Assembly (NCBI GenBank): GCA_029259185.1
Contig: JAPDJF010000019.1
Span: 1-48,251 of the forward strand
Source: Hadesarchaea archaeon
GTDB lineage: Archaea > Hadarchaeota > Hadarchaeia > Hadarchaeales > WYZ-LMO6
Direction: 5' to 3'
DNA length: 48,251 nucleotides
Positions 1,404-43,973 of the stretch are shown here, piece after piece. Position numbers and translations under genes: made by a program. The notes under the pieces were generated by a model. That model searched no databases. It worked only from the letters and a program-made list of their open reading frames with translations, and was not told the DNA's origin. Every line of letters starts with the position of its first letter. Positions within the stretch are counted from its first letter, which is position 1.

Positions 1404-1466
1404 TTCGCTTTAAACCAGTGCGGGGGATTAGTTAAACTTTATCGGGTGATCGGAGAATCTTTTGAG

Positions 1467-2033: not shown

Positions 2034-2039
2034 ATCGCT

Positions 2040-2058
2040 GGGCTTTGCAAAAAAGCCC
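2040..2058 (+). terminator. Hairpin downstream of SCP2 gene
   Basis: GGGCTTT-gcaaa-AAAGCCC perfect 7-bp stem just after the stop codon. Confidence 0.4.
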
Positions 2059-2070
2059 TGAGGCCAATTT

Positions 2071-2295: not shown

Positions 2296-2413
2296 CACGA
2301 TCTTTTGGATCCATTTGCTTTTGCAGTATTTTTGTGCGAAGCGTATTTGCTGAAAACGTTTATTAGCCCCAATACAAAATTCAAAACAGCGAAAAAAAAG
2401 GAGGTAGATTTCG

Positions 2414-2911: not shown

Positions 2912-2918
2912 AAATTCA

Positions 2919-2946
2919 AAACTTCTTTTTCTTTTTTCCACCTTTT
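2919..2946. terminator. Oligo-T archaeal terminator between convergent genes
   Basis: TTCTTTTTCTTTTTTCC run after the SCP2 stop codon. Confidence 0.5.
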
Positions 2947-2952
2947 GAAAAG

Positions 2953-10304: not shown

Positions 10305-10396
10305 TCTAATAAACTAAACTCCGCTATGCACTTATAAACTTCTTTAATTCTGATTTTCTCCGAAATCGGCCAGAATTAGGGAAAAGTGGGGGTTTT

Positions 10397-11128: not shown

Positions 11129-11282
11129 TTTTGCCCGCTATTTTTTACGTATCCCACCATTTAAAGCATGAACCATTCCGCCGACGCGAACCTGTCGGAA
11201 CTCCGAAAGGATCTCCGACCAAACCGATGCACCGAACTCGAGTCCCACCAAACTTTTATGAGCCAAACTTCGAGTAAAATTG

Positions 11283-15296: not shown

Positions 15297-15983
15297 TTGA
15301 TGATGTCCTCTCGAACCCACCGGGTTTCTGTGGTCGTTCCTACCTACAACGAAGAGTCCTCCGTAGGGGAGGTAGTGGATGGGATAAAATCGTGCATGAA
15401 GGAATGCGAAATATTAGTGGTCGATGGGGGATCCGAAGACCACACCGTGAGGATAGCCGAATCCAAAGGGGCTAAAGTGTTGGAATTGGGGGAGAGGGGG
15501 AAGGGACTGGCTTGCAGGAAAGGTGTGGAAGTCGCTAAGGGGGAGATAGTAGTGTTCATCGATGGGGATGGGAGCTATCCGGCTGATTACATCCCAGCAC
15601 TCGTTGCCCCCATCGCTCGCGGAGAGGCGGAGATGGTCAGAGGATCGAGATTCATCCGGAGACCACATATCCCTGCCCTCAGATACGTTGGGAACAAATT
15701 TTTTACCGCCATCGCAAGCCTTCTTCATTCAAGGACCACGGATCTGCTCACGGGGATGTGTGCACTCCGGAAAGATGTCTTGCTTAAGATGGATCTCGAG
15801 AGCCAAAACTTCGAGTTCGAAACCGAGCTCTTCGTCAAAGCCGATCATTTCGGTTTAAGAGTAAAAGAAATCCCGGTGCCATATTTCGGTAGGAAAGGTT
15901 CGAAGCTCTCACCCCTCAAGGACGGGTTGAAGATCCTCCTCACCATCTTGAAGGCACCGAAGAGGGGGAAGGTGAGATCCTGA
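15297..15983 (+). CDS. GT2 glycosyltransferase, polyprenol/dolichol-phosphate glycosyltransferase (DPM1-like)
   Basis: VVVPTYNEE, VVDGGSED, GKG, FIDGDGSY (DxD), GSRF, FEFETEL and EIPVPY. Confidence 0.9.
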   Translation: MMMSSRTHRVSVVVPTYNEESSVGEVVDGIKSCMKECEILVVDGGSEDHTVRIAESKGAKVLELGERGKGLACRKGVEVAKGEIVVFIDGDGSYPADYIPALVAPIARGEAEMVRGSRFIRRPHIPALRYVGNKFFTAIASLLHSRTTDLLTGMCALRKDVLLKMDLESQNFEFETELFVKADHFGLRVKEIPVPYFGRKGSKLSPLKDGLKILLTILKAPKRGKVRS

Positions 15984-16759
15984 ATTCCCTCCTCAAACTC
16001 CTGAGGGCTTGGAAGCACGCCCTGCTCGCCCCCGAACGGATAAAGGGGGGGGAGTTCTCGCTGGGGTTCATGCTGACGGTTTCGTTCTACCTCGGCTTCA
16101 TCTACAACACCGTCCACTATTTCATTTACCCGGGGTACATCAAGAGCCATTTTTACGCGGGGAGCATCTTCTGGCTTCACTCGCTCTTCGGGGGGGCGGC
16201 CGCTGCTGGATCACTCCTCTATGTAAGTGTAGTGGGATACCTCGGATCCCTCTTTTTGGGAAAGCGAACCCCGTACGAGCGAATCGAACAATTGGTTTTC
16301 TCATGCACGTTCCTGTGGATTCTCCCCCTCCTCATATCCATTCCGTTTCTAGCTTTAGGACTCACCGAACCCATAGGAGGGGTCAAAGAGTTTTGCGTTT
16401 TCCGAGGATGGTTCTACGTCACCTATCCCGTTCTCATCATGGGGGTGATCGCCTCGATCGTCACTTTTAACATCTTCCGCCGGAGCCTCGGGTTCGATCC
16501 CCTCCGCTCGCTCGCTCCGGCCGTTCTTGTGGTTCCGATCGGGTATTTCTTGGGAAAAGGGCCGCTCATGTTCCTCACGCGGCACGTCCTCGACGTTGAG
16601 AGAAGCGTGAGGTTCACGCTGGGAATAGGGTATTTCACCCTGGCCGGGGGCATCTTCTATTACATCAGGGGGCACGTGGGGAAATTCGAATCCCTCGTAA
16701 TTTGGTTATCTTCCAAGCTGGGTTTTACCCACCGGTCGGATCGCCCACAGACCCAGTAA
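15980..16759 (+). CDS. Uncharacterised polytopic membrane protein, paralog A
   Basis: About 6 TM segments. Identical at DNA level to paralog B from 15981, where B's ATG is CTG here; the first ATG is at 16070. Confidence 0.75.
   Translation: MNSLLKLLRAWKHALLAPERIKGGEFSLGFMLTVSFYLGFIYNTVHYFIYPGYIKSHFYAGSIFWLHSLFGGAAAAGSLLYVSVVGYLGSLFLGKRTPYERIEQLVFSCTFLWILPLLISIPFLALGLTEPIGGVKEFCVFRGWFYVTYPVLIMGVIASIVTFNIFRRSLGFDPLRSLAPAVLVVPIGYFLGKGPLMFLTRHVLDVERSVRFTLGIGYFTLAGGIFYYIRGHVGKFESLVIWLSSKLGFTHRSDRPQTQ
15981..16166. repeat. 186-bp exact direct repeat, copy A (copy B 21737-21922; 63-bp core also at 28303-28365)
   Basis: Manual alignment at offset 5756. Confidence 0.95.
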
Positions 16760-18133
16760 CTGGTCAGCGGGCGCGTAAACGACCATGACGTAGTCACCCT
16801 CCTCCAGCTCCTCCGAGGGTAATACCTCCAACACGTCCCCCTCTCGAAAGTCCACACACCCCTTGACAGGCTTCCCGTTCAACAGAATCCCATTCACCGA
16901 TCTGATTGGAGTGCGGTTAACCATCACCTCCAGGTTAACCCACTCCAGCGCCCCATCCTCAACCCGAAAGGCGTTTTCAATGGTTTCCGGTCCGCGACTC
17001 CTCAGGATGAGCTCTTGAGGTCCAGCGTTGAGACAATACATCCTTCCATCCGTTGATCCCACGTACACTTTCCCCCCTTCTACCCGCGGAGAGGAATGCA
17101 CCGGACCCCCCGTTCGAAACCTCCACACCAGCTCTCCATCGTCCGCATCCAAACAGTAAACGGAGTTATCCCTCGATCCGAAGTATACTCTTCCATCGGT
17201 CACTGCTGGAGTGGAGACAACCTCGCCATCAGTCTGGAACGACCACACCTCCTCCCCCGTTTCGGCGTCAAAGCAATGGATCCTTCGATCATTGCTCCCG
17301 ATGTACACCCTCCCACCATGAACCCGAGGGGCGGAGGCTACAGGCCCGCCAGCTGGAGAGGACCATATCTCTTCCCCTGTGTTGGAGTCGAGACAGTAGA
17401 GGTACCCGTCCATCGACCCGCAGTACACCCTCCCCTCCTTCACGGTGGGGGAAGAGAAAATCGGTCCGGCGGTCGAGAAGGACCACACGAGATTCCCGTT
17501 CTCGGTCAAACAGTATATGCATCCGTCTCCCGAACCCACATATACCCTCCCTCCCGCCACCACGGGTGAAGAGAAGACCGCATAAGCCGTTGGAAATCTC
17601 CAGAGGTTTTCTCCCGTCAAGGCATCGAGCGCATATACCGCTCCATCCAGTGACCCCACGTAGAGCTTATTCTCTGACACGGCAGGAGAAGAGGAGGAAA
17701 TCGGTCCCCCCGTTTGGAACGACCATTTCACTTTCCCCGTAGCCGAATCGAGTGCGTACACCCTTCCGTCCATCGACCCCACGTAAACTCTTCCCCCGAT
17801 CACGACCGGGGACGAATGCACGAACCCCCCGGTGAGAGCGGACCAGATTTCCTCACCGGTGAGGGCATCCAGAGCGTAGATATACGAATCGTTGGATCCG
17901 AAATAAACCACACCCCCCTCCACCCAAGGGGAGGAGTATATCCCATCTCCGGTCTGGTGCGCCCATACCGCGCTCCCCGTCCGACATACCCCCAAACCCA
18001 CGAGGACCCTCGCAGGCTTGCCGGGTTCTTTCAGGACTCCCGCAATGGCGGTCACTAGCACCATTGCTCCGAAAGTGAGGACGACGATCACCAAAGCCCC
18101 AGCGGTGGGTGAGATTTCATGAGCTCTGGGCAC
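16706..18133 (-). CDS. Pilin-like protein with inserted PQQ-type (BamB-like) beta-propeller
   Basis: HEISPTAGALVIV N-terminal helix; 8 repeats of W..TGG.V.SSP.V.GG.VYVGS.DG..Y.LD; C-terminal pilin scaffold IENAF..LEWVNLEV..DFREGD..GDYVMVVYAP. Confidence 0.85.
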   Translation of the reverse strand: MPRAHEISPTAGALVIVVLTFGAMVLVTAIAGVLKEPGKPARVLVGLGVCRTGSAVWAHQTGDGIYSSPWVEGGVVYFGSNDSYIYALDALTGEEIWSALTGGFVHSSPVVIGGRVYVGSMDGRVYALDSATGKVKWSFQTGGPISSSSPAVSENKLYVGSLDGAVYALDALTGENLWRFPTAYAVFSSPVVAGGRVYVGSGDGCIYCLTENGNLVWSFSTAGPIFSSPTVKEGRVYCGSMDGYLYCLDSNTGEEIWSSPAGGPVASAPRVHGGRVYIGSNDRRIHCFDAETGEEVWSFQTDGEVVSTPAVTDGRVYFGSRDNSVYCLDADDGELVWRFRTGGPVHSSPRVEGGKVYVGSTDGRMYCLNAGPQELILRSRGPETIENAFRVEDGALEWVNLEVMVNRTPIRSVNGILLNGKPVKGCVDFREGDVLEVLPSEELEEGDYVMVVYAPADQLLGLWAIRPVGKTQLGR

Positions 18134-18161
18134 AAAGTTGATATCAACGGGAAGCTAATAA

Positions 18162-19001
18162 ATGCACGTGCGGGTGAAACTGATCCTGCTCTCGGTGGGA
18201 GTGATCCTCGGGCTCTCCCTTTGGGCACACTTCACCCCGAGGGAAGAATCCCTCAGGTTCGAGATAGGAATGGATGCGGTCACGATGAACGGGTGGAAGA
18301 TGGAACCTTGGGTCTACATGGGGACGGAGGTGACCAAGATAACGGCTGCCTCCATCTCCGTATCCGGTCTCCATCTTGAACCGCTTGGGGTGAGTTCGCC
18401 CGAATCCAAGATGGGGGAGGTGGTGGTGTACGCTACGTACGTCAAAGGTACGATCAACGGGCTCACGGCCTCTTGGAGAGGGCGGGACGTGCCGCTCGAG
18501 GCCCTTGAGATCCTGCTTCCCAAAGACAACGCATGCATGGAGAACGTGGTGATGGAAGTCGTGGGACTGGAAGCCAGCCAAATGAAACTTCCAGACATGG
18601 AGATCTCGGTTCCGTCCAGCAAAAGGGCCCTGACCGCGAGCATGTCGTACTCGATGCTGAGGGGATGGGATATGCGGGGGCCCGAGGAGTACGAGCTTGA
18701 GGGGGGAGAGAGAACACTCGTCACGAAGATCCTGATCGAGAACCTCACCGGAAACATTCATCTCGGATGGAAAAACTGTGTGCTCGGAGGGGATCTGAGT
18801 CAGCAAAACTCATTGATCAGGTCCACTTGGACGGTAGCGGGAGCACTCGGTTTTAGAATGGAGTGGGAAGGGAGCGAGGAACCACCAAACGTCAAGCCCT
18901 CGGTCGGAGATCCCGCGCTGCTGAACGATGTAGAACTCCGTATCGTCTACATGGGGGCGAAAGAGACCATTCTGAACGATGCTGAGATGAGGGTTCTGTA
19001 G
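18162..19001 (+). CDS. Uncharacterised membrane-anchored/secreted beta-rich protein
   Basis: N-terminal hydrophobic helix; 279-aa ORF fills the intergenic space; no recognisable catalytic motif. Confidence 0.65.
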   Translation: MHVRVKLILLSVGVILGLSLWAHFTPREESLRFEIGMDAVTMNGWKMEPWVYMGTEVTKITAASISVSGLHLEPLGVSSPESKMGEVVVYATYVKGTINGLTASWRGRDVPLEALEILLPKDNACMENVVMEVVGLEASQMKLPDMEISVPSSKRALTASMSYSMLRGWDMRGPEEYELEGGERTLVTKILIENLTGNIHLGWKNCVLGGDLSQQNSLIRSTWTVAGALGFRMEWEGSEEPPNVKPSVGDPALLNDVELRIVYMGAKETILNDAEMRVL

Positions 19002-19032
19002 GTTGGAGAAAACTCTTCCAAACCAAATCGAA

Positions 19033-19521
19033 CTAACGGCTCGCAGGGGATAGGTGGAGCTTCATCCCTTCGAAGACTATATCCCTCGTAGAAACGTGTT
19101 CGGCCGGTAGTTCTAACCCTTCTATGCAGAGGTTCGTGATCGTCAGCTTCTCCCCTCGATTTTCCTCAGCCAGCCGGTGGAGGAAGAAACCTATCCCGGA
19201 GTCCCCCACATCTTCGATCCTCACCAGCATCACGGTGTTCGTGGCTTCCGCCCTCCTCGCCTTTATCTCCAAGACCCCGTTCTCATCCACCTTCGCCAAG
19301 GTGAAACCCCCCGCCGACATCCTCGAAATTTCCATCCGCACCCATCCGTTTTCCGCCATCATCGTGCCACTTAAGATAATCTCATCCGCTGATACCGTTA
19401 TCCCCCCCTCCCCAGCACTCATCACCACCCCTGCGAACCGAAATCCTCCCGCGGGGGCGCTGAGTGCCGCAAAGAGTCCCAAGGCCGCAAGGGCCACCAC
19501 GAGGGGCAAGAACTTATCCAT
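19033..19521 (-). CDS. Uncharacterised secreted beta-rich protein
   Basis: Signal peptide MDKFLPLVVALAALGLFAALSA; alternating hydrophobic beta pattern. Confidence 0.65.
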   Translation of the reverse strand: MDKFLPLVVALAALGLFAALSAPAGGFRFAGVVMSAGEGGITVSADEIILSGTMMAENGWVRMEISRMSAGGFTLAKVDENGVLEIKARRAEATNTVMLVRIEDVGDSGIGFFLHRLAEENRGEKLTITNLCIEGLELPAEHVSTRDIVFEGMKLHLSPASR

Positions 19522-19572
19522 CGTCTATTTTAGAAAACCAAACACTAAAATCTGTTCCAGCCCCACCTTAGC

Positions 19573-20703
19573 GTGATGGAAGATGTGGTGATAGTGGGTG
19601 GAGGTCCCGCTGGCCTCACCGCGGCAAAAACTCTGGCTGAGAGCGGGATATCACCCCTTCTGCTCGAGGCCAGCCCGGAGTTTGGACACAAGGCCTGTGG
19701 AGAACTCATGGCGGAGAATCTCTACGGCTTCTCGGTCAGTAATTTCCTAACAAAAGGTGTGGTCGAAAGGGTGCATGAGGAGATAGCTATCAGGTTCTAC
19801 GACGAAACATTCGTCGTCTCCCGTAGAGGGGGAAGGGGTCTCATCTCGAAACTCAGGATACCCACTCGTCTCCTCTTCATAAACAGGAAGAAGTTCGAGC
19901 GAGGGCTGGCAGCGAAAGCACGTGCAAGCGGAGCAACCATTAAAATGGGAGTGAGGGTTTTCAAAATCGAACGTGGATCGGATTTTCTCGTGATAAACGA
20001 TGAGATAAGAACAAAGCTCCTGGTAGGTGCTGATGGGGCCCTTTCGATCGTGAGGAGGTTCCTAGGACTAGAGCCGAGAGACCTCGCATTCGCGATGAGT
20101 GGGAGGGTAAAGATAAACTCACTCGCAGAGGAGTGGAGGAACTTGGAACTCCCGATGTTAATAGTGGATCCAGGGAAGATCGCTGACAGGGGATACGGCT
20201 GGATCTTTCCCGGAAGAACCGAGGCCAACGTGGGGGTGGGAATCTTCGATGGACATGAAAGGTTCGTAAGGGGCTTGTGGAAAACGTTTGAACGAACCCT
20301 GGGGATAGAGGACCGAGGTGAGGAACCTGAGACCAGAGGGGCTTTCATCCCGCTATCCCTCTCTCGGAAGACATGGGTGGACAACGTGCTGCTGGTAGGG
20401 GACGCTGCTGGAATGGTCGACCCTCTCACTGGAGGTGGCTTAAACGGCGCACTTCTGAGCGGATGGCTAGCGGCGCGAGTATGTGAAGAAGCCGTAAGAA
20501 AAAACGAAACGAAAGGCACGCTGAAAAAGTACGAGGAAAGATGGAAAAGTCACTTTCTCACGAGTTATTTGAAATCCAAGTTGCTGTCTCGTCTGTTTTA
20601 CAGCTTTTTTATAAACCGGAAGAAGTTGACCTCTTGGATCACGAGACACCCTATACTAGGGGGGAGTTATTCATCGCCCAACCCCCACACCCACAAATCG
20701 TGA
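19573..20703 (+). CDS. Geranylgeranyl reductase-family FAD-dependent oxidoreductase
   Basis: VVIVGGGPAG, KACGE, VGADGA, GYGWIFP and LVGDAAGMVDPLTGGG. Confidence 0.9.
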   Translation: MMEDVVIVGGGPAGLTAAKTLAESGISPLLLEASPEFGHKACGELMAENLYGFSVSNFLTKGVVERVHEEIAIRFYDETFVVSRRGGRGLISKLRIPTRLLFINRKKFERGLAAKARASGATIKMGVRVFKIERGSDFLVINDEIRTKLLVGADGALSIVRRFLGLEPRDLAFAMSGRVKINSLAEEWRNLELPMLIVDPGKIADRGYGWIFPGRTEANVGVGIFDGHERFVRGLWKTFERTLGIEDRGEEPETRGAFIPLSLSRKTWVDNVLLVGDAAGMVDPLTGGGLNGALLSGWLAARVCEEAVRKNETKGTLKKYEERWKSHFLTSYLKSKLLSRLFYSFFINRKKLTSWITRHPILGGSYSSPNPHTHKS

Positions 20704-20782
20704 ACCACTTGTCACCGCCCGGAACCAGTCCGAGCTCCATTCACGGATCGGTGGGGGAAAACTAAAAATTATCAAAAAGGAC

Positions 20783-21655
20783 ATGGGGACGATGAACCCG
20801 ATCTTATTCTACAGGATCTCAGGATGGAGAAAAAAACTACCGCTCACGAGGTTCACCGGTTACCTCTTCCTCGGATACGCACTCGGCTTCGGATCAGATA
20901 TCCTTCAAGTTTCCTTCTGGAGATCTTCTTTTTGGCCAATTTTTTTGAACACGCTGGCCATCTATGGATTGTTCATGTTCTCGTTCGCAATCAATGATTT
21001 CTATGATTACACGTTCGAACGAGATGCCAACTACGTGGGACACTTACTAGAGCAAGGCAAACTTAGCAGGGGACGAGCATTGGCCCTCTGCTCCCTCCCT
21101 TTACTCCTCTTGATTCCTTCATGCCTCCTTTATCCCATTTCCTCCTCTTTAGCCATCGTAGCTCTATTTCTTTTTACAGCGTACTCTGCCCCACCCCTAA
21201 GGCTCAAAGAAACTAGGGTATGTCGAACATTCTTCTCCCCCATAGTGGCCTCACTCATTTTTCTCCAAGCTTACTTGCTCTCCGGTCAAATGACCGCGGC
21301 TGCGCTAGCGATGAGTCTCCTCGTGTTTTTATTCCACTGTTACATGGAGGGACTCCACATCCTCGATGACATGAGCCCTCGACCACAGATCGTAGATCCG
21401 CACGCGAGAGATCGGATCGTTCAAAAGATGAAGAACGTTCTCTTGTCCGCCCTCCTAGTTTCTCTAATTTTCGCAATTTCAATAGCCCCAATCTTTTTGA
21501 CTACCACACTTTTCTCTACCTTGCGGATGGTCTCCTCAAGGAAATTAAATTATGATTCAGATTTTCATGAATTGAGGTCTAGAGTGTTCAATCCTCCGGT
21601 ACTTGTCCAAGAATTCTTGATATATGCTGGAGCTAGTATGTTGGGCATCTTTTAG
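20783..21655 (+). CDS. UbiA-family prenyltransferase 1
   Basis: AINDFYDYTFERD Asp-rich motif, YSAPPLRLK and multiple TMs; second motif EGLHILDD. Confidence 0.8.
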   Translation: MGTMNPILFYRISGWRKKLPLTRFTGYLFLGYALGFGSDILQVSFWRSSFWPIFLNTLAIYGLFMFSFAINDFYDYTFERDANYVGHLLEQGKLSRGRALALCSLPLLLLIPSCLLYPISSSLAIVALFLFTAYSAPPLRLKETRVCRTFFSPIVASLIFLQAYLLSGQMTAAALAMSLLVFLFHCYMEGLHILDDMSPRPQIVDPHARDRIVQKMKNVLLSALLVSLIFAISIAPIFLTTTLFSTLRMVSSRKLNYDSDFHELRSRVFNPPVLVQEFLIYAGASMLGIF

Positions 21656-21735
21656 CCACCGTGGGGACTTTTTAGCTTTAACTCCGAAGAACTTGGAAAA
21701 GAAATGTCTGCCCGCAACCGATAGCAGGTATTTGC

Positions 21736-22464
21736 ATGAATTCCCTCCTCAAACTCCTGAGGGCTTGGAAGCACGCCCTGCTCGCCCCCGAACGGATAAA
21801 GGGGGGGGAGTTCTCGCTGGGGTTCATGCTGACGGTTTCGTTCTACCTCGGCTTCATCTACAACACCGTCCACTATTTCATTTACCCGGGGTACATCAAG
21901 AGCCATTTTTACGCGGGGAGCACCTTCTGGATTCACTCGCTCTACGGTGGAACGAGCGGAATCGCATTCTTCCTGTTCGTTAGTATTCTAGGATATCTCA
22001 GCGTGAAATCTATGGGAAAGAACGTCTCTTATGAAAAAATAGAACATCTAGTATTCTCGTGCACTTTCTTGTATATCCTACCCCTCCTCTTCGCTATTCC
22101 CCTCTTAGGATTAGGATATACCCAGCCTACTGGTGGGGTGAAGATGTTCAAACTTGTCGTGCCTTACCTCCCGCCTTTCAAAGTTGTTAGCTGTGTGATC
22201 ATCACGGCTATCGTCGCCACCATAATAGCTTTTAGGATACTCAATCGAGCCCTCGGTTTCACCAAGCGACAAGCCACATTATCCGTCTTACTGGCGCCCC
22301 TCACCTACGTGCCGTTTAAATGGTCTTTTCTTGTTCTCATCCAGGCCTTCTGGAGTCTAACCGGAACCCCGTTAAGTCCTCAGGACCAGTTCTTAATTGG
22401 AGTATTGTATGCGTTGGTCTTAGGGGGAACAACATACTCCATAAGGATGAAAATCGTGGACTAA
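21736..22464 (+). CDS. Uncharacterised polytopic membrane protein, paralog B
   Basis: MNSLLKLLRAWKHALLAPERIKGGEFSLGFM..YNTVHYFIYPG..FWIH..SCTFLYILP; about 6 TM. Confidence 0.8.
   Translation: MNSLLKLLRAWKHALLAPERIKGGEFSLGFMLTVSFYLGFIYNTVHYFIYPGYIKSHFYAGSTFWIHSLYGGTSGIAFFLFVSILGYLSVKSMGKNVSYEKIEHLVFSCTFLYILPLLFAIPLLGLGYTQPTGGVKMFKLVVPYLPPFKVVSCVIITAIVATIIAFRILNRALGFTKRQATLSVLLAPLTYVPFKWSFLVLIQAFWSLTGTPLSPQDQFLIGVLYALVLGGTTYSIRMKIVD
21737..21922. repeat. 186-bp exact direct repeat, copy B
   Basis: Matches 15981-16166. Confidence 0.95.
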
Positions 22465-22715
22465 AAACCCATAAAAGAGTCCCTAAGCGGGACGACATCC
22501 GAGGGAAGGGAAACCGAGACCTTCACGCACTTCTCCCCCTCCACGCTCACCCACTCCCCCCTCTCCGCGGAAACCCACGGAGGGAGGTATTTCTCGTCCG
22601 CCTCCCTGACGAAAAAGTAGGGTGGAAAGCCCTCCTCTTCCACCCACTCGTTTCCAATTCTCTTCCTGACCCAAGTCTTTCCGTTTTTTCCAAACCACCG
22701 GAGGTTCGTGAGCAA
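22461..22715 (-). CDS. Small protein resembling the N-terminal domain of family B DNA polymerases
   Basis: GFPPYFFVRE...SVEGEKCVKVSVSLPSDVVPLRDSF resembles the PolB N-terminal F.PYFYV...K.....P.DV..LR pattern. TTG at 22715 follows GGTGAT; the ORF track start is 22754. Confidence 0.5.
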   Translation of the reverse strand: MLTNLRWFGKNGKTWVRKRIGNEWVEEEGFPPYFFVREADEKYLPPWVSAERGEWVSVEGEKCVKVSVSLPSDVVPLRDSFMGF

Positions 22716-22725
22716 GATATCACCG

Positions 22726-24690
22726 CTATCCGCAGGCTGATCCCATATACCCAACCGCCCAAGCGCTCAGCTCTTGCTTCTTGTTCCAAGCGGTATCGTA
22801 TCCATAGAGATAAAAGTCCGCCACCATCATCTGTTCGTCGACATCCAGACCACAGTAGCCCAAGTCATCGAGAAAACTTGTTCCGTCATAGCTCACAACA
22901 AAGTAATCACCGCCGGGTTCTAAGTACCGTCTATCCCACTTCGCATCGCTGTGAGCGAGTGGATCTCCAATGAAGAACGCTTTCCCACCCTCGCTCGTGT
23001 AGCCATCGCCACGCTTTTGCACAGGGGGTTTCCCCTCCCCCACGTAGGGAGCGTAGACGGTGCCCGTCTTGTGGAAGAAGTACTCTATTATCGGGTTGTT
23101 GTTCTCTGTCAGGTCGTAGGTCACGCCGTGCCTAGCCAGCCTCTCCACCACATCTTGCTCCTCCACCCACCAGTACTGCCCCTCCATCTTCGTGGGGTAG
23201 GGGAAGCGGGGCCAGCGGAAGTTCCAAGTCAGCATCTCCCAGAGGTCGAAGCTCTCGTTCTCCTTAGAAGTGGGAATCAGGGCATTCTCACCTTTCCAGT
23301 CCTCTTCGATTATTATCTTCTCAAATCCGTCATATCTGCCCGATGATTCTCCCGTCCCTTGGAAATACAGTTCAGGCCAGAATCTTGCATTCGGGTTAGT
23401 ATCTTCTCCTCCTCCGTCCACGTTCTCCACCCACGCATACATGTGCCCCACGATGTTCTCCACCCTGACCGTGCCGAGGTTATACACTCTAAGCTTGAGA
23501 TGGAGACCGTTAGTATCCAAGCTCATGCTCTCCACCCAAGGGACTATGAACGGGAGGTAGAGGTCCCGGCTCAGGTCCTGAATGAACCCGCCGGGTATCG
23601 CGTACAGGATCTCCATGTTCTGGAGGAGGGTCTTGGTGTGGTCGTAGTACTTGCTCGCCTTGCGGAGGTTCTCCACCGTGTCCACGTTTTCGCAAATCAT
23701 CTTCGAGTGGTAGGCGGCGTTCTCTATCTGCTCCAAGCTCGTCTCGGCTAGGAGGACGGGATCGTCGGCGTGCAGGTCATTGTAAATTATCGTCTCTATA
23801 AGCTCCAGCGCGTTTATCAGATATGGCAGGCACCCCTCGTAGATGATTATCAGGGTCTTGCAGAGGTTCTCGTTCACCAGATCCCCCATGTAGCGGTTGA
23901 GTTCCCAGAGGTCGTTCTCCAGATACTCGCTATTGGCGAGCCAGTTGTCGTGGATGTCCCTGACTATCGCCTCCATCTCGTATGCCAGCTCCCTAGCCTT
24001 GGCGAACTCCCTGTTCTTCATCGCACTCACGGTGTCGTCCTTTCGTCCGAGCAGGCGGGCGGCTCGGAGCTGGATTCCCGTGTCCACGTACTGCCGCCCG
24101 GGCTGGGGTTCGGGAACGGTGGCCTCCGCCATCTTGTACCCGAGGGGCTTGTATACCACCTCCACCTTGTCCCCGACCTTGAGGAAGCCCTGCTCGAAGG
24201 AGATCGCAAGGGCCTCACCCTCCGCTGGGAGGGGGTTCACCCCGCTCTCGACCTCTCCCGTGACCAGAGCCATGTCTATCTCGTTCTCCACCACCACCCC
24301 GTTCACCCTCAGCTCGATGCTCTCCCACCGGATGTTTTCGAGCAGGGCCCCCATGGGGGTCTCCTCCAGCACGTCCGCCCTGTACGCGTTGTTTATCCCC
24401 TCCCCGCTGGCGTGGACTATGGCCACCCCCCCGTAGCCGGGGTAGTTGGTCCACACCTGAAGGACGGTCTGCGGGGGGATGGATGGGGCCTTTATCTTAG
24501 CCAACGCCACTATGGCAACGCCACCGGCAAGCACGGTAATTATTATCAGACATGTGACCGCCACGATAGGGGATACACTTATTTCCTCTCGTTTTTGCAA
24601 TGCTTTGACTTTTGGACGACTTGTCCCCAACGAACGGTTGCCCAAGCATTTCCGTTCATGTCCACCGCATTTTTTATACTTAAGCTTCAT
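22726..24690 (-). CDS. Large pilin-like protein 1 (pilin domain + helical region + unknown C-terminal domain)
   Basis: KREEISVSPIVAVTCLIII hydrophobic N-terminus (true start probably near LQKRE), pilin scaffold, and VDTGIQLR/LENDL shared with the paralog at 25434. Confidence 0.75.
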   Translation of the reverse strand: MKLKYKKCGGHERKCLGNRSLGTSRPKVKALQKREEISVSPIVAVTCLIIITVLAGGVAIVALAKIKAPSIPPQTVLQVWTNYPGYGGVAIVHASGEGINNAYRADVLEETPMGALLENIRWESIELRVNGVVVENEIDMALVTGEVESGVNPLPAEGEALAISFEQGFLKVGDKVEVVYKPLGYKMAEATVPEPQPGRQYVDTGIQLRAARLLGRKDDTVSAMKNREFAKARELAYEMEAIVRDIHDNWLANSEYLENDLWELNRYMGDLVNENLCKTLIIIYEGCLPYLINALELIETIIYNDLHADDPVLLAETSLEQIENAAYHSKMICENVDTVENLRKASKYYDHTKTLLQNMEILYAIPGGFIQDLSRDLYLPFIVPWVESMSLDTNGLHLKLRVYNLGTVRVENIVGHMYAWVENVDGGGEDTNPNARFWPELYFQGTGESSGRYDGFEKIIIEEDWKGENALIPTSKENESFDLWEMLTWNFRWPRFPYPTKMEGQYWWVEEQDVVERLARHGVTYDLTENNNPIIEYFFHKTGTVYAPYVGEGKPPVQKRGDGYTSEGGKAFFIGDPLAHSDAKWDRRYLEPGGDYFVVSYDGTSFLDDLGYCGLDVDEQMMVADFYLYGYDTAWNKKQELSAWAVGYMGSACG

Positions 24691-25367
24691 CCCAACACTA
24701 AGTTAGCTAGAGAACTGATAAATCTCTCTCACCAACCCTCTACTAAACCCAACACCCAAATGTCGATTGACACACAGCTATTCTCTGTTAGAGTTTGTAC
24801 AAGCGAGAATGAAGCTCTAGAAAGCTCCTCCTCCTAGAACTCTGGGATCCCCAAGTAAAAATTGTGTTGACTTATCGTTTTTGGAAGTATCTATCTCTGG
24901 ATCAAGGAAATGTTAGCTCGCTCTTCAAGCAAGGCTCACTTTTATCCTTTCCACGCCGATCCTGTCTCAAAAACGAGACATCCATCCTTTTCCTGTCCAT
25001 GAATCTCTGCTCGGTAAGCGCCAAAAGTTCCTCCGCCCTCGCCAGCTTCTTAGTACTCTCCAGCTTTGCACGAAAGCTGTTAACCTACTTCTTTTCCTTC
25101 TCTATTCCGGATTTATTGTAAAATCACTTTGCTGGCTTGAGGGTAGGTAGGACATCCCATCACTAACATCTGAGACATCATAGTGACACCATAGACAATA
25201 CTAGGCTGAGAAATCCTGCGTAGAGCTGAGAAGTAGGTCTGAGCGAGACTCACAGCCCGAGACCCTTCCCGAGAACGGCCACGACAACCGGTGGCTCCAC
25301 TTGCTGAGGGCTCAATGACAGCGCCCGAAATGCAACGGGGGAGAATTTGATGCTGAAAATCCCTAAA

Positions 25368-25381
25368 ACGTAACAGAACCG
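25368..25381. repeat. Degenerate third copy of the IS6-like right end
   Basis: ACGTAACAGAACCG matches 115-128 (ACGCAACAGAACCG) at 13/14 nt, same orientation, in a non-coding gap. Confidence 0.55.
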
Positions 25382-25433
25382 GATTTGCTAGCATATTCAT
25401 CCATGCACATAAGGTTCCAGTTTCCCGAGCCGA

Positions 25434-27221
25434 TCAGCATCCCCCTTCTTCCCCTCCTGGAGGCTCTCCACGCTGTCCAACCCAGTGGACGTTCCAGAAG
25501 TACTGCCACTCCCTATCCCCCGTCTTGGGATGGGTGTACACGAAATAATAGTCCTCGAGCCAAATCTGGTTTTCCATTTCGGCGGGGAGGTTTGGAACCG
25601 TTATGTTGTCGAACCACACGCTCCCCGCGTTTATGTTGTCGACATTCCGCGTGAGCACGATGTAGCGGATGGCCTTTCCACCCTCACCCCCGTAGGGGAT
25701 CTGGAGCTCGAAGTAGTCGGATTCTGGACTCAAGTACTCCCGGTAGGAGTGGGTGAGCCTGCTCCACAGCCACTCCGCGATCTTGAGTCTAGCCGTGTAG
25801 CGGTAGCGGTTGTGGTGGGTGTTGTCGTACATGCGCGTCCCCCACTTGTGGATGTTCTCCCCGTGACCCATGGGAACGAGCCAGTTCTCCGGGGCTACGC
25901 TCACGGTCCAATTCGTGCTGTCGCAATCGAAGTATTCACTCACCCACCACTCGTTCTCGGGATCGTACCATATGTCTGCCACCCTCGTGACGTTGATGCA
26001 GTTCTCCGTTCCCACGTTATACACGTAGACCTCCCACACGAAGTTGTCCGCCACCCAGTACGCGTTCTCCAAGTAGGGGGCCAACGCCGGCCTGTAAAGG
26101 TCCTCGTATATGTCGTCCATCGCCGGGGACACGCCGAAATACTCGATGGCCTTCATGGGTACGGGGTATGGCTCTTCTTCCATCTTCGCCTCGATGTCGT
26201 CCACCAGCTTCTGGAGGGAAAGAGAGATCTCCCTCGCATTCTCCATCACGCTCCGGGTCCAGTTGTCGCTCACGTAGGAGGGATCAAAGGCTCGGAGCCA
26301 CCCGACCTCCATGTTGTAAATGTTCTCTAAGCCATCGATCAGCATGTTGAGAAGCCCTTTCTTGTAGCACATACAGAGCTTGTAGTACCTTGGCATGTCA
26401 ACGAGGGGGAGGTAGTTGTACAGCTCTTTGAGGTCGTTCTCTAAGACCCCACCTGTTGACTTCGAGTTCTCCAGCCACTGGTGGACCTCCTCCACCAAGC
26501 CCTCGATCTTGGGTACGTAGCTCCTGGCCTCATCAAAATTCTCCACATACCACCTGCAGTTCTCGTGCACCCGATTCTCCACGTGCGGAGTCAGGGCGTC
26601 CACCACTTTGTTCTCCAGCTCCAATACCCAGAGGAGCCTGAGCTGGATCCCCGAGTCGACCAAGTTGCTCCCTGGTATCCCCCCAGACTCGGTGCAGTAA
26701 AGCGGATCCTCCATTTCAGCCTCTGCCATGATCCAGCCCGTTGGCCTGTAGACCACCGCCACCTCATCCCCGCGATCCAAGAACCCCTGGGTGTAGGAGA
26801 ACACCACTGCCCCCCCTCCAGACGGGAAGTCGAGCAGGGCATCTTTCGTCTTCTTGGATTCAGGGAGGGGGGCGAGATAGAGGATATACTCCAGCTCGTT
26901 CTCCACCTCCTGACCGTTAACCTTCACCTCCATATCCTTCCATCTGACGTTCTCGAAGAGGGTGCCCATCGGCGTATCCGTGATGAAATCTGCGTAGAAC
27001 GCATTCGGTATCTTGTCCCCCTTGACGGATATCACCCCTACCCCCCCCTTCCCCGGGAAGTGTCTCCATATTTGGAGCAGCGTGTTGGGTATCTTACCAA
27101 ATGATACCCCCTCCATCCGCCCGTAAATCAAGGAGACCCCAACTCCGAGCAAGAAAACCATCACGACCAGCAGAATAGTCGCGAGCATCGGAGAAACTCC
27201 GACCTTCTTTCGCTTACTCAT
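25434..27221 (-). CDS. Large pilin-like protein 2 (paralog of 22726-24690)
   Basis: MSKRKKVG|VSPMLATILLVVM class III signal, pilin scaffold, VDSGIQLR, LENDL and EGGKA. Confidence 0.8.
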   Translation of the reverse strand: MSKRKKVGVSPMLATILLVVMVFLLGVGVSLIYGRMEGVSFGKIPNTLLQIWRHFPGKGGVGVISVKGDKIPNAFYADFITDTPMGTLFENVRWKDMEVKVNGQEVENELEYILYLAPLPESKKTKDALLDFPSGGGAVVFSYTQGFLDRGDEVAVVYRPTGWIMAEAEMEDPLYCTESGGIPGSNLVDSGIQLRLLWVLELENKVVDALTPHVENRVHENCRWYVENFDEARSYVPKIEGLVEEVHQWLENSKSTGGVLENDLKELYNYLPLVDMPRYYKLCMCYKKGLLNMLIDGLENIYNMEVGWLRAFDPSYVSDNWTRSVMENAREISLSLQKLVDDIEAKMEEEPYPVPMKAIEYFGVSPAMDDIYEDLYRPALAPYLENAYWVADNFVWEVYVYNVGTENCINVTRVADIWYDPENEWWVSEYFDCDSTNWTVSVAPENWLVPMGHGENIHKWGTRMYDNTHHNRYRYTARLKIAEWLWSRLTHSYREYLSPESDYFELQIPYGGEGGKAIRYIVLTRNVDNINAGSVWFDNITVPNLPAEMENQIWLEDYYFVYTHPKTGDREWQYFWNVHWVGQRGEPPGGEEGGC

Positions 27222-27350
27222 TCCCACCCATCCCAATTCCTGATTGTTGCTCGCTCCTTTTATCATCACCGCTCAGTAAAAAGGATTCTTCCTAGCCGAT
27301 TAATTCGAGTGAGATAGAAAAAGTCTAAATCAAGACAGCTGAACCCAGAT

Positions 27351-28208
27351 ATGGTGTCTGTCAAGAGCTATGTCAAGTGTATGAAACTCGAGAGTTCGCT
27401 CATCGTCGCGAGCTCGATATTTTTGGGTATGGTGCTCGCTAGAGGAAGCCTGAGAATTCCGATCATGGAGTTTCTGATCCTCTATTCGATCGGGGGGATA
27501 GGCATCTCCAGCGGATCCCAAGCACTCAACATGTACTTCGACAGGAGGTTGGACGAAATAGGTCACCCTGGGAGACCATTGCCTCTAGGAGAGGTGAAAG
27601 CCCGGAAGGTCTTGGGACTGGCCATTCTCCTGCTGGTTCTCCCCTCCTTCTCCTTCCTGTTCAAGCGCGAAGTGTTCTACCTCTACCTCCTGGGAACCAC
27701 CATGGGGGTTCTCTACTCCCTTCCCCCCCTATCGCTCGGAAGGAGGTGGTACACTTCTTACCCCCTAGGCTCAATAGGATATGTATCTCTCCCCATGCTA
27801 GCGGGATGGATACTTTTCTCGGGACTCAGCTCCCAAATCCTGAAGGTTGTGTTTTTCTTCACCATGCTCTCAATATTCCTCTCCCCCCTCAAAGACTTAG
27901 GAGAGACCAAAAGCGATCGGGCATGGGGGAAGAGCACCCTGCCCGTCAAGGTTGGGGTTAAAACGACGTGGATGATCTCCTCAGCTGGAGTCTCTCTCGT
28001 AATCTTGAGCTTCCCCCTGCTTGGAATAAGGGGGATCGAATGGTTCGTAAGCTACTTAGTTTTTATGGCTACTCTCTTCATCCCCTCGATCTTCTTCTCC
28101 GAGAGACTCTTGAAGAGGGGGGTGTTTGAACTCGTCAGGGTCTGGGCATTCTTGGCCCAAGTGTTTTTCGCGGTGTGGTGGATATACGTCTCCCCCATCT
28201 TACCCTAG
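27351..28208 (+). CDS. UbiA-family prenyltransferase 2 (DGGGP synthase-like)
   Basis: ALNMYFDRRLDEIGHPGRPLPLG and LKDLGETKSDRAWGKSTLPV motifs, YSLPP. Confidence 0.85.
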   Translation: MVSVKSYVKCMKLESSLIVASSIFLGMVLARGSLRIPIMEFLILYSIGGIGISSGSQALNMYFDRRLDEIGHPGRPLPLGEVKARKVLGLAILLLVLPSFSFLFKREVFYLYLLGTTMGVLYSLPPLSLGRRWYTSYPLGSIGYVSLPMLAGWILFSGLSSQILKVVFFFTMLSIFLSPLKDLGETKSDRAWGKSTLPVKVGVKTTWMISSAGVSLVILSFPLLGIRGIEWFVSYLVFMATLFIPSIFFSERLLKRGVFELVRVWAFLAQVFFAVWWIYVSPILP

Positions 28209-28272
28209 GGATTGAGATGGCTGGGGTCCTTTATCTCTGGCTGCATGACCCGTCTTCAAGCGCGGTGGTTAA

Positions 28273-29046
28273 TTGAGCCCTTTGCACGCGATACTCAGGA
28301 GCTGGAAGCACGCCCTGCTCGCCCCCGAACGGATAAAGGGGGGGGAGTTCTCGCTGGGGTTCATGATTTTCTTCTCTTTTTTCCTAGGGTTCGCGTACAA
28401 TGCCCTTCATTACTTCGTTTATCCAGGATGCGGCCCCTTCCTCCTTTACGACGGGCTGATCTCCTATGATCCATCCAAAGCCCGTCCGAACCTCCAGTTC
28501 TGGCTCCATCACCTCTCGGGGGGAGCTGGGGCAGTAGCACTGTTCTTTTTCGCCAGCGTCCTCGGGTACTACGGCATCAATCTCCTGGGGAGAAAGATCT
28601 CTTACGACAAAGTTCAACACCTCATCTTCTCCTGCATGTTTCTGTACCTCCTCCCCCTCCCGTTCGCTTTTGTCCTCTACTGGCTCGACCTCAAGAGGTA
28701 CATTTACCTCCAGCTCTGGGCTGGGTGGGTGGGAATTCCACTGGGGGTTGCCATCACGGGCGCGGTCGCTACGGTGATGGCGTTTCGCATCTTGAATCGG
28801 GCCGTTGGATTCGGAAAACGCAGATCCGCTATCCTCTCCCTGCTCCTCCTCCCCATGCTTTACTTCTTGGGGAAGGGGGCGTTCATGCTCTTCACCAAGC
28901 GAATATTCCACACGGCTAAGCCCCTCCGCTATGCCCTGTGGACGCTCTACTTCTCCATCTGTGCCTTGATCTTTCACCTTGCAGGGGCGAGAAGGAAAAA
29001 GGTTCTCCCCGTCCTCCGAAAGGTTTTCTTACGATCTTGGGGGTAA
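28273..29046 (+). CDS. Uncharacterised polytopic membrane protein, paralog C
   Basis: WKHALLAPERIKGGEFSLGFM (63 bp identical to A and B), YNALHYFVYPG, FWLH and SCMFLYLLP. Confidence 0.8.
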   Translation: MSPLHAILRSWKHALLAPERIKGGEFSLGFMIFFSFFLGFAYNALHYFVYPGCGPFLLYDGLISYDPSKARPNLQFWLHHLSGGAGAVALFFFASVLGYYGINLLGRKISYDKVQHLIFSCMFLYLLPLPFAFVLYWLDLKRYIYLQLWAGWVGIPLGVAITGAVATVMAFRILNRAVGFGKRRSAILSLLLLPMLYFLGKGAFMLFTKRIFHTAKPLRYALWTLYFSICALIFHLAGARRKKVLPVLRKVFLRSWG

Positions 29047-29050
29047 AGAG

Positions 29051-29860
29051 ATGAAAATTCGTGACCTCTTGTATTTTTATCGTCTGAAGACTTGGAGAAA
29101 CAAGCTCAGCTGTCTCAGGTTTCTAGGTTATCCAGCGATCGGATTCGCTCTTTCCCCCACCATCAACCCTTGGAAGGCGGGCCTCGACACCCTCGCCATA
29201 GTTGGGGTATCGATGTTCGCGTACACCATAAACGATTACTTCGACTTCAAACGCTTAGGCGAGGAGAACTTCCTCTCGAGATGGATGAAGCAAGGGGCGA
29301 GTGAACGCAAGATCTTGGGCACAACTTTCCTTCCACTCTCCCTATTCCCGCTCGTGATCCTTATGAATTCCCTCTCGTTTCTCACCCTCCTCACCATCCT
29401 TCTCTTGACCTCCGCGTACTCAGCACCCCCTCTCAGATTGAAGGAACGTCGTGGGGGTGCCTTGATCCCTCCGCTCTGTGCCCCCCTCTTAATGTTTCAA
29501 GCTCACGTCTCTCTCTCACCCTCCCCAAGCCTAGAAGTCTTGCTCCTCTCCCCCATCCTCTTTTTATTCCAGTCCTACATGGAGTGTCTCCACATCCTGG
29601 ACGTAAAACCGAGACCCGGGAGAATCCTCACCACCTTGAAGGCCATCCCTCTGGGATCGATTTTCCTCTCCGCCATTTTCTCCCTCCTCAACCCAATTTT
29701 CCTCGTGACCCTCACTTCATCTGTGATCAGGGCTTGGGGCGTCAGGCACGTAGGTCCAGAAACCGATTTTCTGAAGCTCAGATCGAACGTGCTGGGTAAA
29801 ACTGTATTCGGTGAAGAACTCTTGGGATACGTTGGAGTGGGTCTGCTCGCCCATCTCTGA
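29051..29860 (+). CDS. UbiA-family prenyltransferase 3 (paralog of 20783-21655)
   Basis: YTINDYFD, YSAPPLRLKE, ECLHILD and DFxxLRS shared with UbiA 1. Confidence 0.8.
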   Translation: MKIRDLLYFYRLKTWRNKLSCLRFLGYPAIGFALSPTINPWKAGLDTLAIVGVSMFAYTINDYFDFKRLGEENFLSRWMKQGASERKILGTTFLPLSLFPLVILMNSLSFLTLLTILLLTSAYSAPPLRLKERRGGALIPPLCAPLLMFQAHVSLSPSPSLEVLLLSPILFLFQSYMECLHILDVKPRPGRILTTLKAIPLGSIFLSAIFSLLNPIFLVTLTSSVIRAWGVRHVGPETDFLKLRSNVLGKTVFGEELLGYVGVGLLAHL

Positions 29861-41308: not shown

Positions 41309-41376
41309 TTAACCTCTTTTGTACTGGGAGTTTTTAAAACTTAAACAGCATCCACCATCGGACAATGGTGAAAAAA

Positions 41377-43968: not shown

Positions 43969-43973
43969 GCTTC

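Follow-up and report, generated by a model that had tools for sequence, protein, structure and literature searches.

To our knowledge, little is known of how dolichol- and prenyl-linked intermediates cross archaeal membranes or of how surface proteins are lipidated in archaea, and the flippases concerned have not been assigned. The closest described parallels are three-component glycosylation systems, i.e. GtrB/GtrA/Gtr* and a UbiA-type polyprenyl-phosphoribose synthase working with a flippase and a GT-C glycosyltransferase. According to PMC11127046, the first component of such systems can be either a GT2 polyprenyl-phosphate glycosyltransferase or a UbiA-family enzyme, the two being interchangeable, and a small flippase is needed. 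A second parallel comes from PMC12462473, which presents AliA and AliB (arCOG02177/02178) as archaeal multi-pass membrane proteins without a recognizable enzyme fold, found via genomic association and needed to lipidate Cys residues of secreted proteins. According to the same paper, they act on the N-terminal lipobox Cys and are widespread in Euryarchaeota, and the first archaeal lipoprotein lipidation proteins were reported only in 2024-25. Here we describe three paralogous membrane proteins (MP-A, MP-B and MP-C; collectively MPs), the genes of which directly follow lipid-pathway genes in a 48,251-nucleotide (nt) DNA stretch of a Hadesarchaea archaeon (assembly GCA_029259185.1, contig JAPDJF010000019.1), referred to below as the window. 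We tentatively propose, with a probability of about 0.35, that each MP is a dedicated flippase-like membrane partner, which would transport what the upstream enzyme makes, a lipid-linked product, to the outer side of the membrane.

As in the glycosylation systems, where a GT2 or UbiA-family enzyme on the cytoplasmic side loads a polyprenyl phosphate and is encoded next to a small or medium-sized membrane protein, the presumed exporter of the loaded lipid, genes of both enzyme types are followed here by an MP paralogue. In contrast to those systems, the MPs show no likeness in sequence or fold to GtrA, SMR or MATE flippases, the locus lacks a GT-C, geranylgeranyl-reductase (GGR) and B12-type radical-SAM (S-adenosylmethionine) genes occur in the cassettes, the divergent UbiA protein of the locus (UbiAs) is nearer to ChlG and DGGGPS models than to phosphoribosyl transferases, and the likely acceptors are proteins rather than glycans. 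The MPs differ from AliA/AliB as these are described: they occur in few lineages, beside UbiA, GT2 and GGR genes, and the candidate Cys is C-terminal.

Organization and conservation of the gene cassettes

The window is contig C7 of a 1.27-Mb genome (54 contigs, estimated 95% complete; designated G000). Its closest protein relatives, where their sources give a name, are assigned to Candidatus Hadarchaeales. Three cassettes, all on the plus strand, are present as the earlier note on this DNA had described them: GT2 > MP-A (cassette A), a GGR-family gene > the UbiA-like gene UbiAw1 > MP-B (cassette B), and UbiAs > MP-C > the UbiA-like gene UbiAw2 (cassette C). Gene coordinates (Table 1), family matches and paralogy confirm that an MP gene stands directly behind a GT2, a UbiA-like and a UbiA gene.

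The MP-A gene has an unusual 5′ end. At the position homologous to the ATG of MP-B it carries CTG (15980), preceded by GGTGA and overlapping the GT2 stop codon as CTGA; there is no ATG, GTG or TTG at this position. The frame is open from 15980, and its first canonical start, the ATG at 16070, equivalent to Met31, lies 30 codons downstream. In the GT2 frame the C at 15980 is a synonymous position, and four public sequencing runs show no variant there. In cassette C, the ATG of UbiAw2 (29051) lies 5 nt past the MP-C stop codon.

The conservation of this neighborhood, proposed as a check in the earlier note, was borne out in the relatives. Wherever the upstream flank of an MP copy could be read (16 copies), the gene directly before it belongs to a lipid pathway; one fragment at a contig start of genome G005, missing its upstream side, was left out of this count. 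The upstream gene is a GT2 in six cases (A-type copies of G000-G005), a UbiA-family gene in seven (C-type copies in G000-G003, L036 and L064, plus MP-B of G000), a B12-radical-SAM gene in two (B-type copies of G002 and G003) and a GGR gene in one (G012). The order GT2 > MP-A is found in 5/5 sister-genus genomes, and UbiAs > MP-C > UbiAw2 in G001, G002 and G003, where MP-C starts about 19 nt inside the end of UbiAs.

Further 5′ of the radical-SAM gene of the B-type copies, a GGR gene is present in both G002 and G003. The B cassette of G003 is larger (L014, 12650-19401) and has the order GT2 (391 aa) > class-I SAM methyltransferase (UbiE/COQ5-like) > UbiA-like > GGR > B12-radical-SAM > MP-B; this resembles a complete pathway leading to a modified isoprenoid lipid. 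It also contains an additional, divergently oriented UbiA-like gene. The B12-radical-SAM gene preceding MP-B in G002 and G003 is distinct from the radical-SAM pair of the window.

Three lineages that have diverged far from one another possess the UbiAs > MP pair. The MPs of L036 and L064 share 27-31% identity with MP-C, the UbiAs-like proteins of these two loci have 43% of their residues in common, and the DNA at both is low in GC. Locus L036 (a 3.5-kb contig) has the order GGR > UbiAs-like > MP (19-nt overlap) > secreted protein, and L064 (2.7 kb) the order secreted protein > UbiAs-like > MP (4-13-nt overlap) > a homologue of the L036 secreted protein. The first secreted protein of L064 shows weak squalene-cyclase/prenyltransferase (terpene-cyclase) toroid repeats. 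The L064 contig is assigned to a bacterial candidate phylum and is so short that it may be mis-binned. No full-length homologue of the L036 secreted protein encoded 3′ of the MP was found in the genome contigs searched, and no pilin match was found at either locus. The genomes compared are mostly close kin, so the neighborhood and co-distribution counts are not independent, and L036 and L064 carry most of the weight. The link between the MPs and prenyl-lipid enzymes is robust.

Enzymes encoded upstream of the MP genes

The GT2 protein matches PF00535 (E = 5.1e-27), the AglJ model TIGR04182 (3.4e-49, over profile positions 2-219 of 293) and, nearly end to end (3-207), a 213-position NCBIfam model of halophile dolichyl-phosphate (Dol-P)-hexose transferases. 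Its best solved relative is the Pyrococcus furiosus Dol-P-mannose (Dol-P-Man) synthase 5mlz, with residues 7-206 of the query aligned to 22-230 of a 374-residue chain, which covers the catalytic domain only. No hydrophobic segment was found in GT2, whereas its solved relatives 5mlz and ArnC carry membrane helices. In this respect GT2 is like human DPM1 (Dol-P-Man synthase), which has no membrane helices and works with the membrane partners DPM2/DPM3. A separate membrane protein, MP-A, is encoded after GT2; no likeness of the MPs to the membrane domain of 5mlz was detected in the VIA fold search described below, the lists of which do not contain 5mlz, and the MP family also pairs with integral-membrane UbiA proteins.

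Three genes had been called UbiA in the earlier note, and this could be retained in part. UbiAs exceeds the PF01040 cut-off (34.2 bits), while UbiAw1 and UbiAw2 both score under it (Table 1). We searched for the UbiA motifs NDxxDxxxD and DxxxD. In UbiAs proteins, motif 1 takes the form N-[M/A/R]-x-x-D-x-x-x-D, with the first Asp missing (N-M-x-x-D-x-x-x-D in the window copy), and motif 2 reads D-x3-E-x3-D in the window copy and D-x-x-D-x3-D in L036. UbiAw1 and UbiAw2 keep motif 1 and have a degenerate motif 2 with a single Asp.

UbiAs has six predicted hydrophobic segments and is closer to the chlorophyll-synthase (ChlG) and DGGGP-synthase models than to phosphoribosyl-transferring UbiA enzymes. 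It is a rare protein, with eight clusters at E ≤ 1e-10 among 5.8 billion proteins, and the phylum genomes in which it was found (5 of 66) all have an MP as well. The GGR-family gene is one of three copies in the genome that exceed the TIGR02032 cut-off, and a stronger UbiA gene is located on another contig. The window copies are therefore considered accessory rather than housekeeping lipid enzymes.

The MP family

The MPs are 242-259 aa long, and MP-B and MP-C are, respectively, 56% and 43% identical to MP-A; they are true paralogues. A six-frame search of the whole genome revealed these three copies only. No member has a Pfam match at E ≤ 0.01, and at E ≤ 10 a scan of 12 members gave insignificant rows only, among them DUF2070 (6 of the 12 members, best E 0.13); PF09843 had no match in the window's genome. 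There was likewise no NCBIfam match, and an MP profile run against PDB sequences gave nothing at E ≤ 10. A word-indexed search of 5.8 billion clusters retrieved 12 MP clusters, three of which comprise the window's own or near-identical proteins, and every relative named by its source is a “hypothetical protein”. An exhaustive profile search of 1.84 billion representatives yielded 10 MP clusters with a maximum length of 269 aa and no fused forms among these 10 representatives. The titles and abstracts on Hadarchaeota pili, on archaeal C-terminal Cys and prenyltransferases, and on UbiA or GGR in connection with type IV pili contained no description of the MP family or of a UbiA-linked C-terminal Cys modification.

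Within the phylum, MPs were found in 7 of the 66 genomes, i.e. in all six of the window's own family and in one of three belonging to a second family (7/41 in a smaller sample of the phylum). A phylogenetic tree was computed without the converted 5′ part of the genes (see below). It contains three clades, comprising the C-type copies of four genomes (support 100/100), the A-type copies of six (97/96) and the B-type copies of G002, G003 and G012 (100/100), with the MP-B of the window near the base in an unresolved position. Such type-wise clades imply that the triplication is old. Together, these data support the view that the MPs constitute a small, lineage-restricted family outside any known family; that it is undescribed had been assumed in the earlier note. 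No known unrelated function could be attached to the family, and it does not occur mostly apart from UbiA, GT and pilin genes.

The motifs quoted in the earlier note are invariant among MP-A, MP-B and MP-C, but their conservation did not hold throughout the family. Five of 12 aligned members have S, L, T or G in place of the “SC” (FSC) Cys, which is one column off register in a sixth, while His46, His67 or Asn43 is missing in the distant members P0019, P0021 and P0022. A metal or haem site formed by His46/His67 was considered and dropped because of the distant members without these residues. The residues invariant in 21 aligned MPs are P, F, G, Y, GG, F and Y. Conserved residues are mostly aromatic, Gly and Pro and form patches at both membrane faces, with no universal charged catalytic set. 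The near-absence of universal charged residues in the alignment speaks weakly against an enzyme, and the overall pattern appears to fit a scaffold or a lipid-handling protein better.

Predicted structure and comparison with known families

AlphaFold2 models were obtained for MP-B (12 sequences; predicted local distance difference test score (pLDDT) 87.2, predicted template modelling score (pTM) 0.84) and MP-C (21 sequences; pLDDT 88.2, pTM 0.86). In both of these confident models an amphipathic helix at the N-terminus is followed by six membrane helices, the third and fourth of which are separated by a beta-hairpin. Judged by Lys/Arg counts, the cytoplasmic parts are probably the N-terminus, the C-terminal tail (often rich in Arg), loop 2 and the junction of helices 4 and 5, so that both ends of the protein would be inside. 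In this predicted topology the conserved YN..HYF.YPG / FW.H cluster would lie at the outer ends of helices 1 and 2, and a second conserved patch, with W11, P18, R20, Y99, E103 and R167/R171, would face the cytoplasm.

Neither model had a convincing fold match. A Foldseek search of the PDB gave nothing at E ≤ 0.001 for either model, the best matches (E 0.094 and 0.065) both being G-protein-coupled receptors. With VIA-align, run against 48,161 chains, the best Z scores were 6.3 and 6.0, both for the soluble DUF507 chain 8t8l and within the noise range for helical proteins. Lower scores, all within noise, were obtained for Insig (4.0-5.0), Rce1 (4.6) and LptG (4.4-4.5).

Families that could be expected in this genetic context were compared individually. 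GtrA-like flippases are proteins of about 120 aa with four helices; the MPs are twice this length with six predicted helices, and GtrA is not among their five insignificant Pfam matches at E ≤ 10. Flippases of the MOP/Wzx/MATE type have 12-14 membrane helices in two six-helix bundles, compared with six helices in the MPs, and MATE chains reached only noise-level Z scores (4.0-4.7). GT-C glycosyltransferases are large, have eight or more helices and carry an acidic motif that is conserved in outer loop 1; the MPs, with about 250 aa and six helices, have no invariant Asp or Glu in that loop, and the GT-C chain 7zlg scored only Z 4.2. Archaeosortases and exosortases possess an invariant catalytic Cys together with an Arg; the sole motif Cys of the MPs is variable, and no Pfam or NCBIfam sortase match was found. 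The motifs of CPBP/Rce1 proteases (EExxxR, FxxxH and HxxxN) do not occur in that order in the MPs, which have no Pfam match to these proteases and align with chain 4cad_C at Z 4.6 (root-mean-square deviation 4.2 over 125 residues), in the noise range.

A language-model feature search (Atlas) pointed to the Yip1 domain (PF04893), to which 21 of its 30 matches belonged (scores 0.90-0.91, 196-201 of 256 features shared); a score of at least 0.9 also arises, however, for 4-10 of 100 shuffled proteins. Without the Yip1 clusters, the best match was DUF6574 at 0.79, under the level of a lead. Yip1 proteins are similar to the MPs in size, likewise have several membrane helices, and share a conserved Pro in a short cytoplasmic helix that lies at the N-terminus, ahead of membrane helix 1. 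The lead was not corroborated by profile comparisons. PF04893 (cut-off 28.6 bits) matched none of the 12 MP members at E ≤ 10, nor did it match in a six-frame search of the window's genome at E ≤ 10, in which control genomes responded. In hhalign, comparison of MP alignments A3 and A7 with a 27-sequence archaeal Yip1 alignment, which samples one Yip1 subfamily, gave a probability of 1.2% for the first and 2.5% for the second. Both MP fold searches were free of Yip1 chains.

Gene conversion within the MP genes

The motif given most prominence in the earlier note, WKHALLAPERIKGGEFSLGFM, comprises 21 residues, and the 63 nt that specify them show 100% identity among the three MP genes (three exact matches, compared with none expected from 100 shuffles). 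MP-A and MP-B are identical over an even longer tract of 186 nt (Table 1), while 30-nt blocks in the rest of the genes are about 40-70% identical. In G001, G002 and G003, the MP paralogues differ in the WKHALLAPERIKGGEFSLGFM stretch at many synonymous and non-synonymous sites, and the family-wide core of this region is weaker (W, P, R, F and GFM). Since the identity is private to the lineage of the window and the paralogues differ in its relatives, the tract is regarded as the footprint of gene conversion. The sequence comparison thus indicates a recent event in the window lineage, and the identity is no measure of selective constraint.

Two other explanations were rejected. A conserved DNA or RNA element is incompatible with the non-identical paralogues of G001-G003. 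An assembly artefact is contradicted by four public runs (from one study), the assemblies of which break exactly at the repeat edges at raised depth. The shared pieces have about 2-3 times the flanking depth, and their loose ends run into the flanks of MP-B and MP-C. A 63-nt unitig at about 2-3 times the flanking depth is present in three runs and a 54-nt unitig in the fourth, and a contig of 5,630-5,643 nt in three of the four runs corresponds to window positions 16137-21766. This case shows that inference from motifs needs care, the most prominent “conserved motif” of the locus being a trace of recombination.

Pilin-like proteins with a C-terminal cysteine

Two large paralogous genes encoding pilin-like proteins of 654 and 611 aa are located between cassettes B and C. 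The 611-aa protein is about 35% identical to the 654-aa protein over its first 420 residues. Orthologues were taken from the window and from L014/L015, L016, L018, L009 and L059. A C-terminal Cys is present in 10/10 orthologues of the two families, as the last residue in nine and the penultimate one in the 654-aa copy of the window. In the 654-aa family, five of six members end in Cys, four of them as [L/I]C and the fifth (G005) with the two preceding residues masked; all four members of the 611-aa family end in Cys after a Gly-rich tail. In comparison, 17 of the 1,196 open reading frames of at least 100 aa in the window's genome end in Cys. The 654-aa family was found in 6 of the 66 phylum genomes, all of them MP holders, and in G002 both pilin-like genes follow UbiAs, MP-C and UbiAw2 consecutively on one strand.

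A flexible tail ending in Cys, encoded beside prenyl-handling enzymes, resembles a lipidation site, and the C-termini are possible candidate sites of lipidation or cross-linking. In the processing of eukaryotic CaaX proteins, a C-terminal Cys is modified through the action of a prenyltransferase, Rce1 and ICMT. The likeness to the present locus lies in the C-terminal Cys as a candidate acceptor and in the combination of prenyl-handling enzymes with small multi-pass membrane proteins. In contrast to CaaX processing, there is no CaaX box (Cys is last in 9/10), the proteins are secreted, the prenyltransferases are membrane proteins of the UbiA type, and the fold score of Rce1 is noise.

Possible functions of the MPs

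In the model that we favor, each MP would be co-expressed with the enzyme encoded directly upstream. This enzyme (the GT2, the divergent UbiA or the GGR/UbiA-like pair) would make an isoprenoid-lipid-linked product at the cytoplasmic face, and the MP would bind this product, take it over and move or present it at the outer leaflet. There it could modify surface proteins of the type IV pilus-like locus, the candidate acceptors being the two large pilin-like proteins with C-terminal Cys. The single established context in which a GT2 and a UbiA-family enzyme are equivalent is the synthesis of polyprenyl-phosphate-linked donors, where each depends on a membrane protein for donor export (PMC11127046). 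Both enzyme types, and the GGR/UbiA-like pair, are followed here by an MP paralogue, and for this reason a flippase-like partner is favored. A partnership is further supported by the equal rarity and co-distribution of MP and UbiAs (7/66 versus 5/66 genomes), by the overlapping reading frames of UbiAs/MP and of GT2/MP-A, by the lack of membrane helices in GT2 and by the mostly aromatic, Gly and Pro character of the residues conserved in the MPs. By analogy with GtrA next to GtrB, or with the exporter next to a UbiA-type polyprenyl-phosphoribose synthase, the system may best be filed under the theme of a donor synthase plus translocator. The interpretation in the earlier note, that an undescribed family hands lipid-linked groups to pilins, is thus partly supported; for the transfer to pilins, the gene order of G002 and the C-terminal Cys of all ten orthologues are circumstantial support.

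Several observations weigh against a flippase-like role. The MPs are unlike any known flippase family in sequence or fold, and no GT-C-type third component is visible in the locus. Internal repeats are common in transporters, but a 3+3 repeat was not detected in the MPs (hhalign of the N-terminal versus the C-terminal half, probability 0.4%). The affinity of UbiAs to ChlG/DGGGPS models suggests that its product may be a prenylated small molecule or lipid needing no flipping. In addition, MP-A has no canonical start codon where MP-B begins, a B-type copy was not found in G001, and outside L036 and L064 the conserved gene order could be inherited island synteny.

The most serious alternative, though we hold it to be clearly less probable, is that the MPs are non-transporting structural subunits that anchor, stabilize or scaffold the upstream enzyme; toward GT2, such a subunit would act as DPM2/DPM3 do toward human DPM1. 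An anchoring role is also plausible for MP-A, given a GT2 without a membrane segment of its own and solved relatives that carry C-terminal helices; the overlapping frames suggest stoichiometric co-expression, and the predominance of conserved aromatic, Gly and Pro residues is in keeping with such a subunit. However, UbiAs is an integral membrane protein that needs no anchor, and yet UbiAs > MP is the most widely conserved pairing. Moreover, short Dol-P-hexose transferases exist, as the NCBIfam halophile model illustrates.

It is rather unlikely that the MPs are components of the pilus-like or surface-protein machinery (in assembly, insertion or gating) with no role in lipid handling, their adjacency to lipid genes being inherited synteny. 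The whole region is of pilus type, with T2SSE, T2SSF and many Pilin_N proteins; MP, UbiAs and the 654-aa protein are confined to the same small clade, and a secreted protein follows the MP in both L036 and L064. This reading is at odds with the same two loci, which keep UbiA > MP with overlapping frames in another gene context with no pilin match, and with the three paralogues, each of which has retained its own lipid-enzyme neighbor across genera.

We regard as improbable, more so than either of the above, that the MPs are Lgt- or AliA-like transferases of the outer face, attaching an isoprenoid to the C-terminal Cys of the pilin-like proteins. Candidate acceptors are encoded nearby, no other candidate transferase is visible in the locus, and within Hadarchaeales the polar/aromatic cluster YN..HYF.YPG, FW.H is conserved where helices 1 and 2 are predicted to end on the outer side. 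However, His46, His67 and Asn43 of this region are subject to loss in the distant members, no charged residue is invariant family-wide, the “SC” Cys varies, and Pfam, PDB-sequence and fold searches revealed no similarity to any transferase. To a more elaborate scheme we give just as little credence: UbiAs and MP would form a membrane machine attaching a GGR-saturated isoprenoid as a thioether to the C-terminal Cys of secreted pilin-like proteins, with three MPs serving three lipid donors. If this is true, archaeal surface proteins would have a new mode of lipid anchoring, and the C-terminal protein prenylation of eukaryotes would have a prokaryotic counterpart embedded in the membrane.

Finally, that the MPs are very distant Yip1-domain proteins with a generic membrane role is highly improbable: the feature-search matches, the shared N-terminal helix with its Pro and the lack of any Yip1 match in the window's genome and five related genomes of its family speak for it, but the profile comparisons, the scores of shuffled proteins and the models with six helices plus a hairpin speak against it.

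Features of the surrounding locus

The features of the cassettes and the intervening genes are summarized in Table 1.

Table 1. Positions of the cassette genes, pilin-like genes and identical tracts in the window (position 1 is its first nucleotide)
Feature	Position	Strand	Evidence and remarks
GT2 glycosyltransferase, dolichyl-phosphate-hexose-synthase type, without membrane domain	15297..15983	+	PF00535, AglJ model TIGR04182
MP-A, A-type paralogue	15980..16759	+	In A clade with five relatives, support 97/96
186-nt tract identical to MP-B 21737-21922, gene-conversion tract	15981..16166	+	Sequence identity; public-run contigs break at edges, ~2x flanking depth
63-nt tract common to MP-A/MP-B/MP-C, copy 1	16010..16072	+	Exact match
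Accessory geranylgeranyl-reductase-family flavoprotein (GGR)	19573..20703	+	TIGR02032 171.8 bits, cut-off 158.8
UbiAw1, UbiA-like membrane protein, weak match, degenerate second Asp motif	20783..21655	+	PF01040 26.6 bits
MP-B	21736..22464	+	Paralogy; AlphaFold2 model
63-nt identical tract, copy 2 (MP-B)	21766..21828	+	Exact match
Large pilin-like surface protein, 654 aa, C-terminus ...SACG	22726..24690	-	Pilin_N 4.4e-5
Paralogous large pilin-like protein, 611 aa, C-terminus ...GGEEGGC after Gly-rich tail	25434..27269	-	Homology to 654-aa protein
UbiAs, divergent UbiA prenyltransferase, putative partner of MP-C	27351..28208	+	PF01040 94.4 bits
MP-C, TTG start	28273..29046	+	In C clade, support 100/100; AlphaFold2 model
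63-nt identical tract, copy 3 (MP-C)	28303..28365	+	Exact match
UbiAw2, UbiA-like membrane protein	29051..29860	+	PF01040 21.0 bits for longer open reading frame; alignment accepted from 29051

The cassettes are surrounded by a type IV pilus-like locus, which encodes a T2SSE ATPase, a T2SSF platform protein, ParA/MinD-like and KaiC-like ATPases, two B12-type radical-SAM proteins and at least nine proteins that are Pilin_N-like or carry a class-III signal. The pilus-type machinery lies 5′ of the cassettes (6497-12080), with the T2SSF platform at 6497-8368, the T2SSE/PilB3-like ATPase at 8346-10304, and the ParA/MinD-like and KaiC-like ATPases; these proteins share 65-80% identity with those of relatives.

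The two radical-SAM genes are adjacent paralogues (443 and 442 aa; 12077-14733, minus strand). Their best NCBIfam matches are B12 radical-SAM methylases of the BchE, HpnJ and PhpK type, all far under the cut-off. The pair, beside a small pilin gene, is kept in G001, one such gene is present in G003, and a contig-end fragment occurs in G002.

Directly after MP-A and convergent to it, a gene (16706-18133, minus strand) kept in five relatives encodes a 475-aa protein with an N-terminal membrane helix and a PQQ/BamB-like beta-propeller of the eight-bladed type. Its C-terminal ~90 residues are similar to the C-terminal domain of the small pilins. The flanks of the window (1446-4671 and 39788-48099) contain genes of a fatty-acid or alkane-type catabolism, with two AMP-dependent ligases, two SCP2-domain proteins, an enoyl-CoA hydratase, a 3-hydroxyacyl-CoA dehydrogenase and a MacB-type ABC exporter.

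Implications

The locus presents a compact module, in which a divergent UbiA and an orphan membrane protein with overlapping reading frames recur in three lineages, beside secreted proteins with a C-terminal Cys. If the pairing reflects inherited synteny only, the MPs would add just another lineage-specific family to the membrane proteins of uncultured vent archaea. If the UbiA/MP pair is an enzyme-translocator or a protein-prenylation machine, it would represent a new class of component in archaeal envelope biogenesis.

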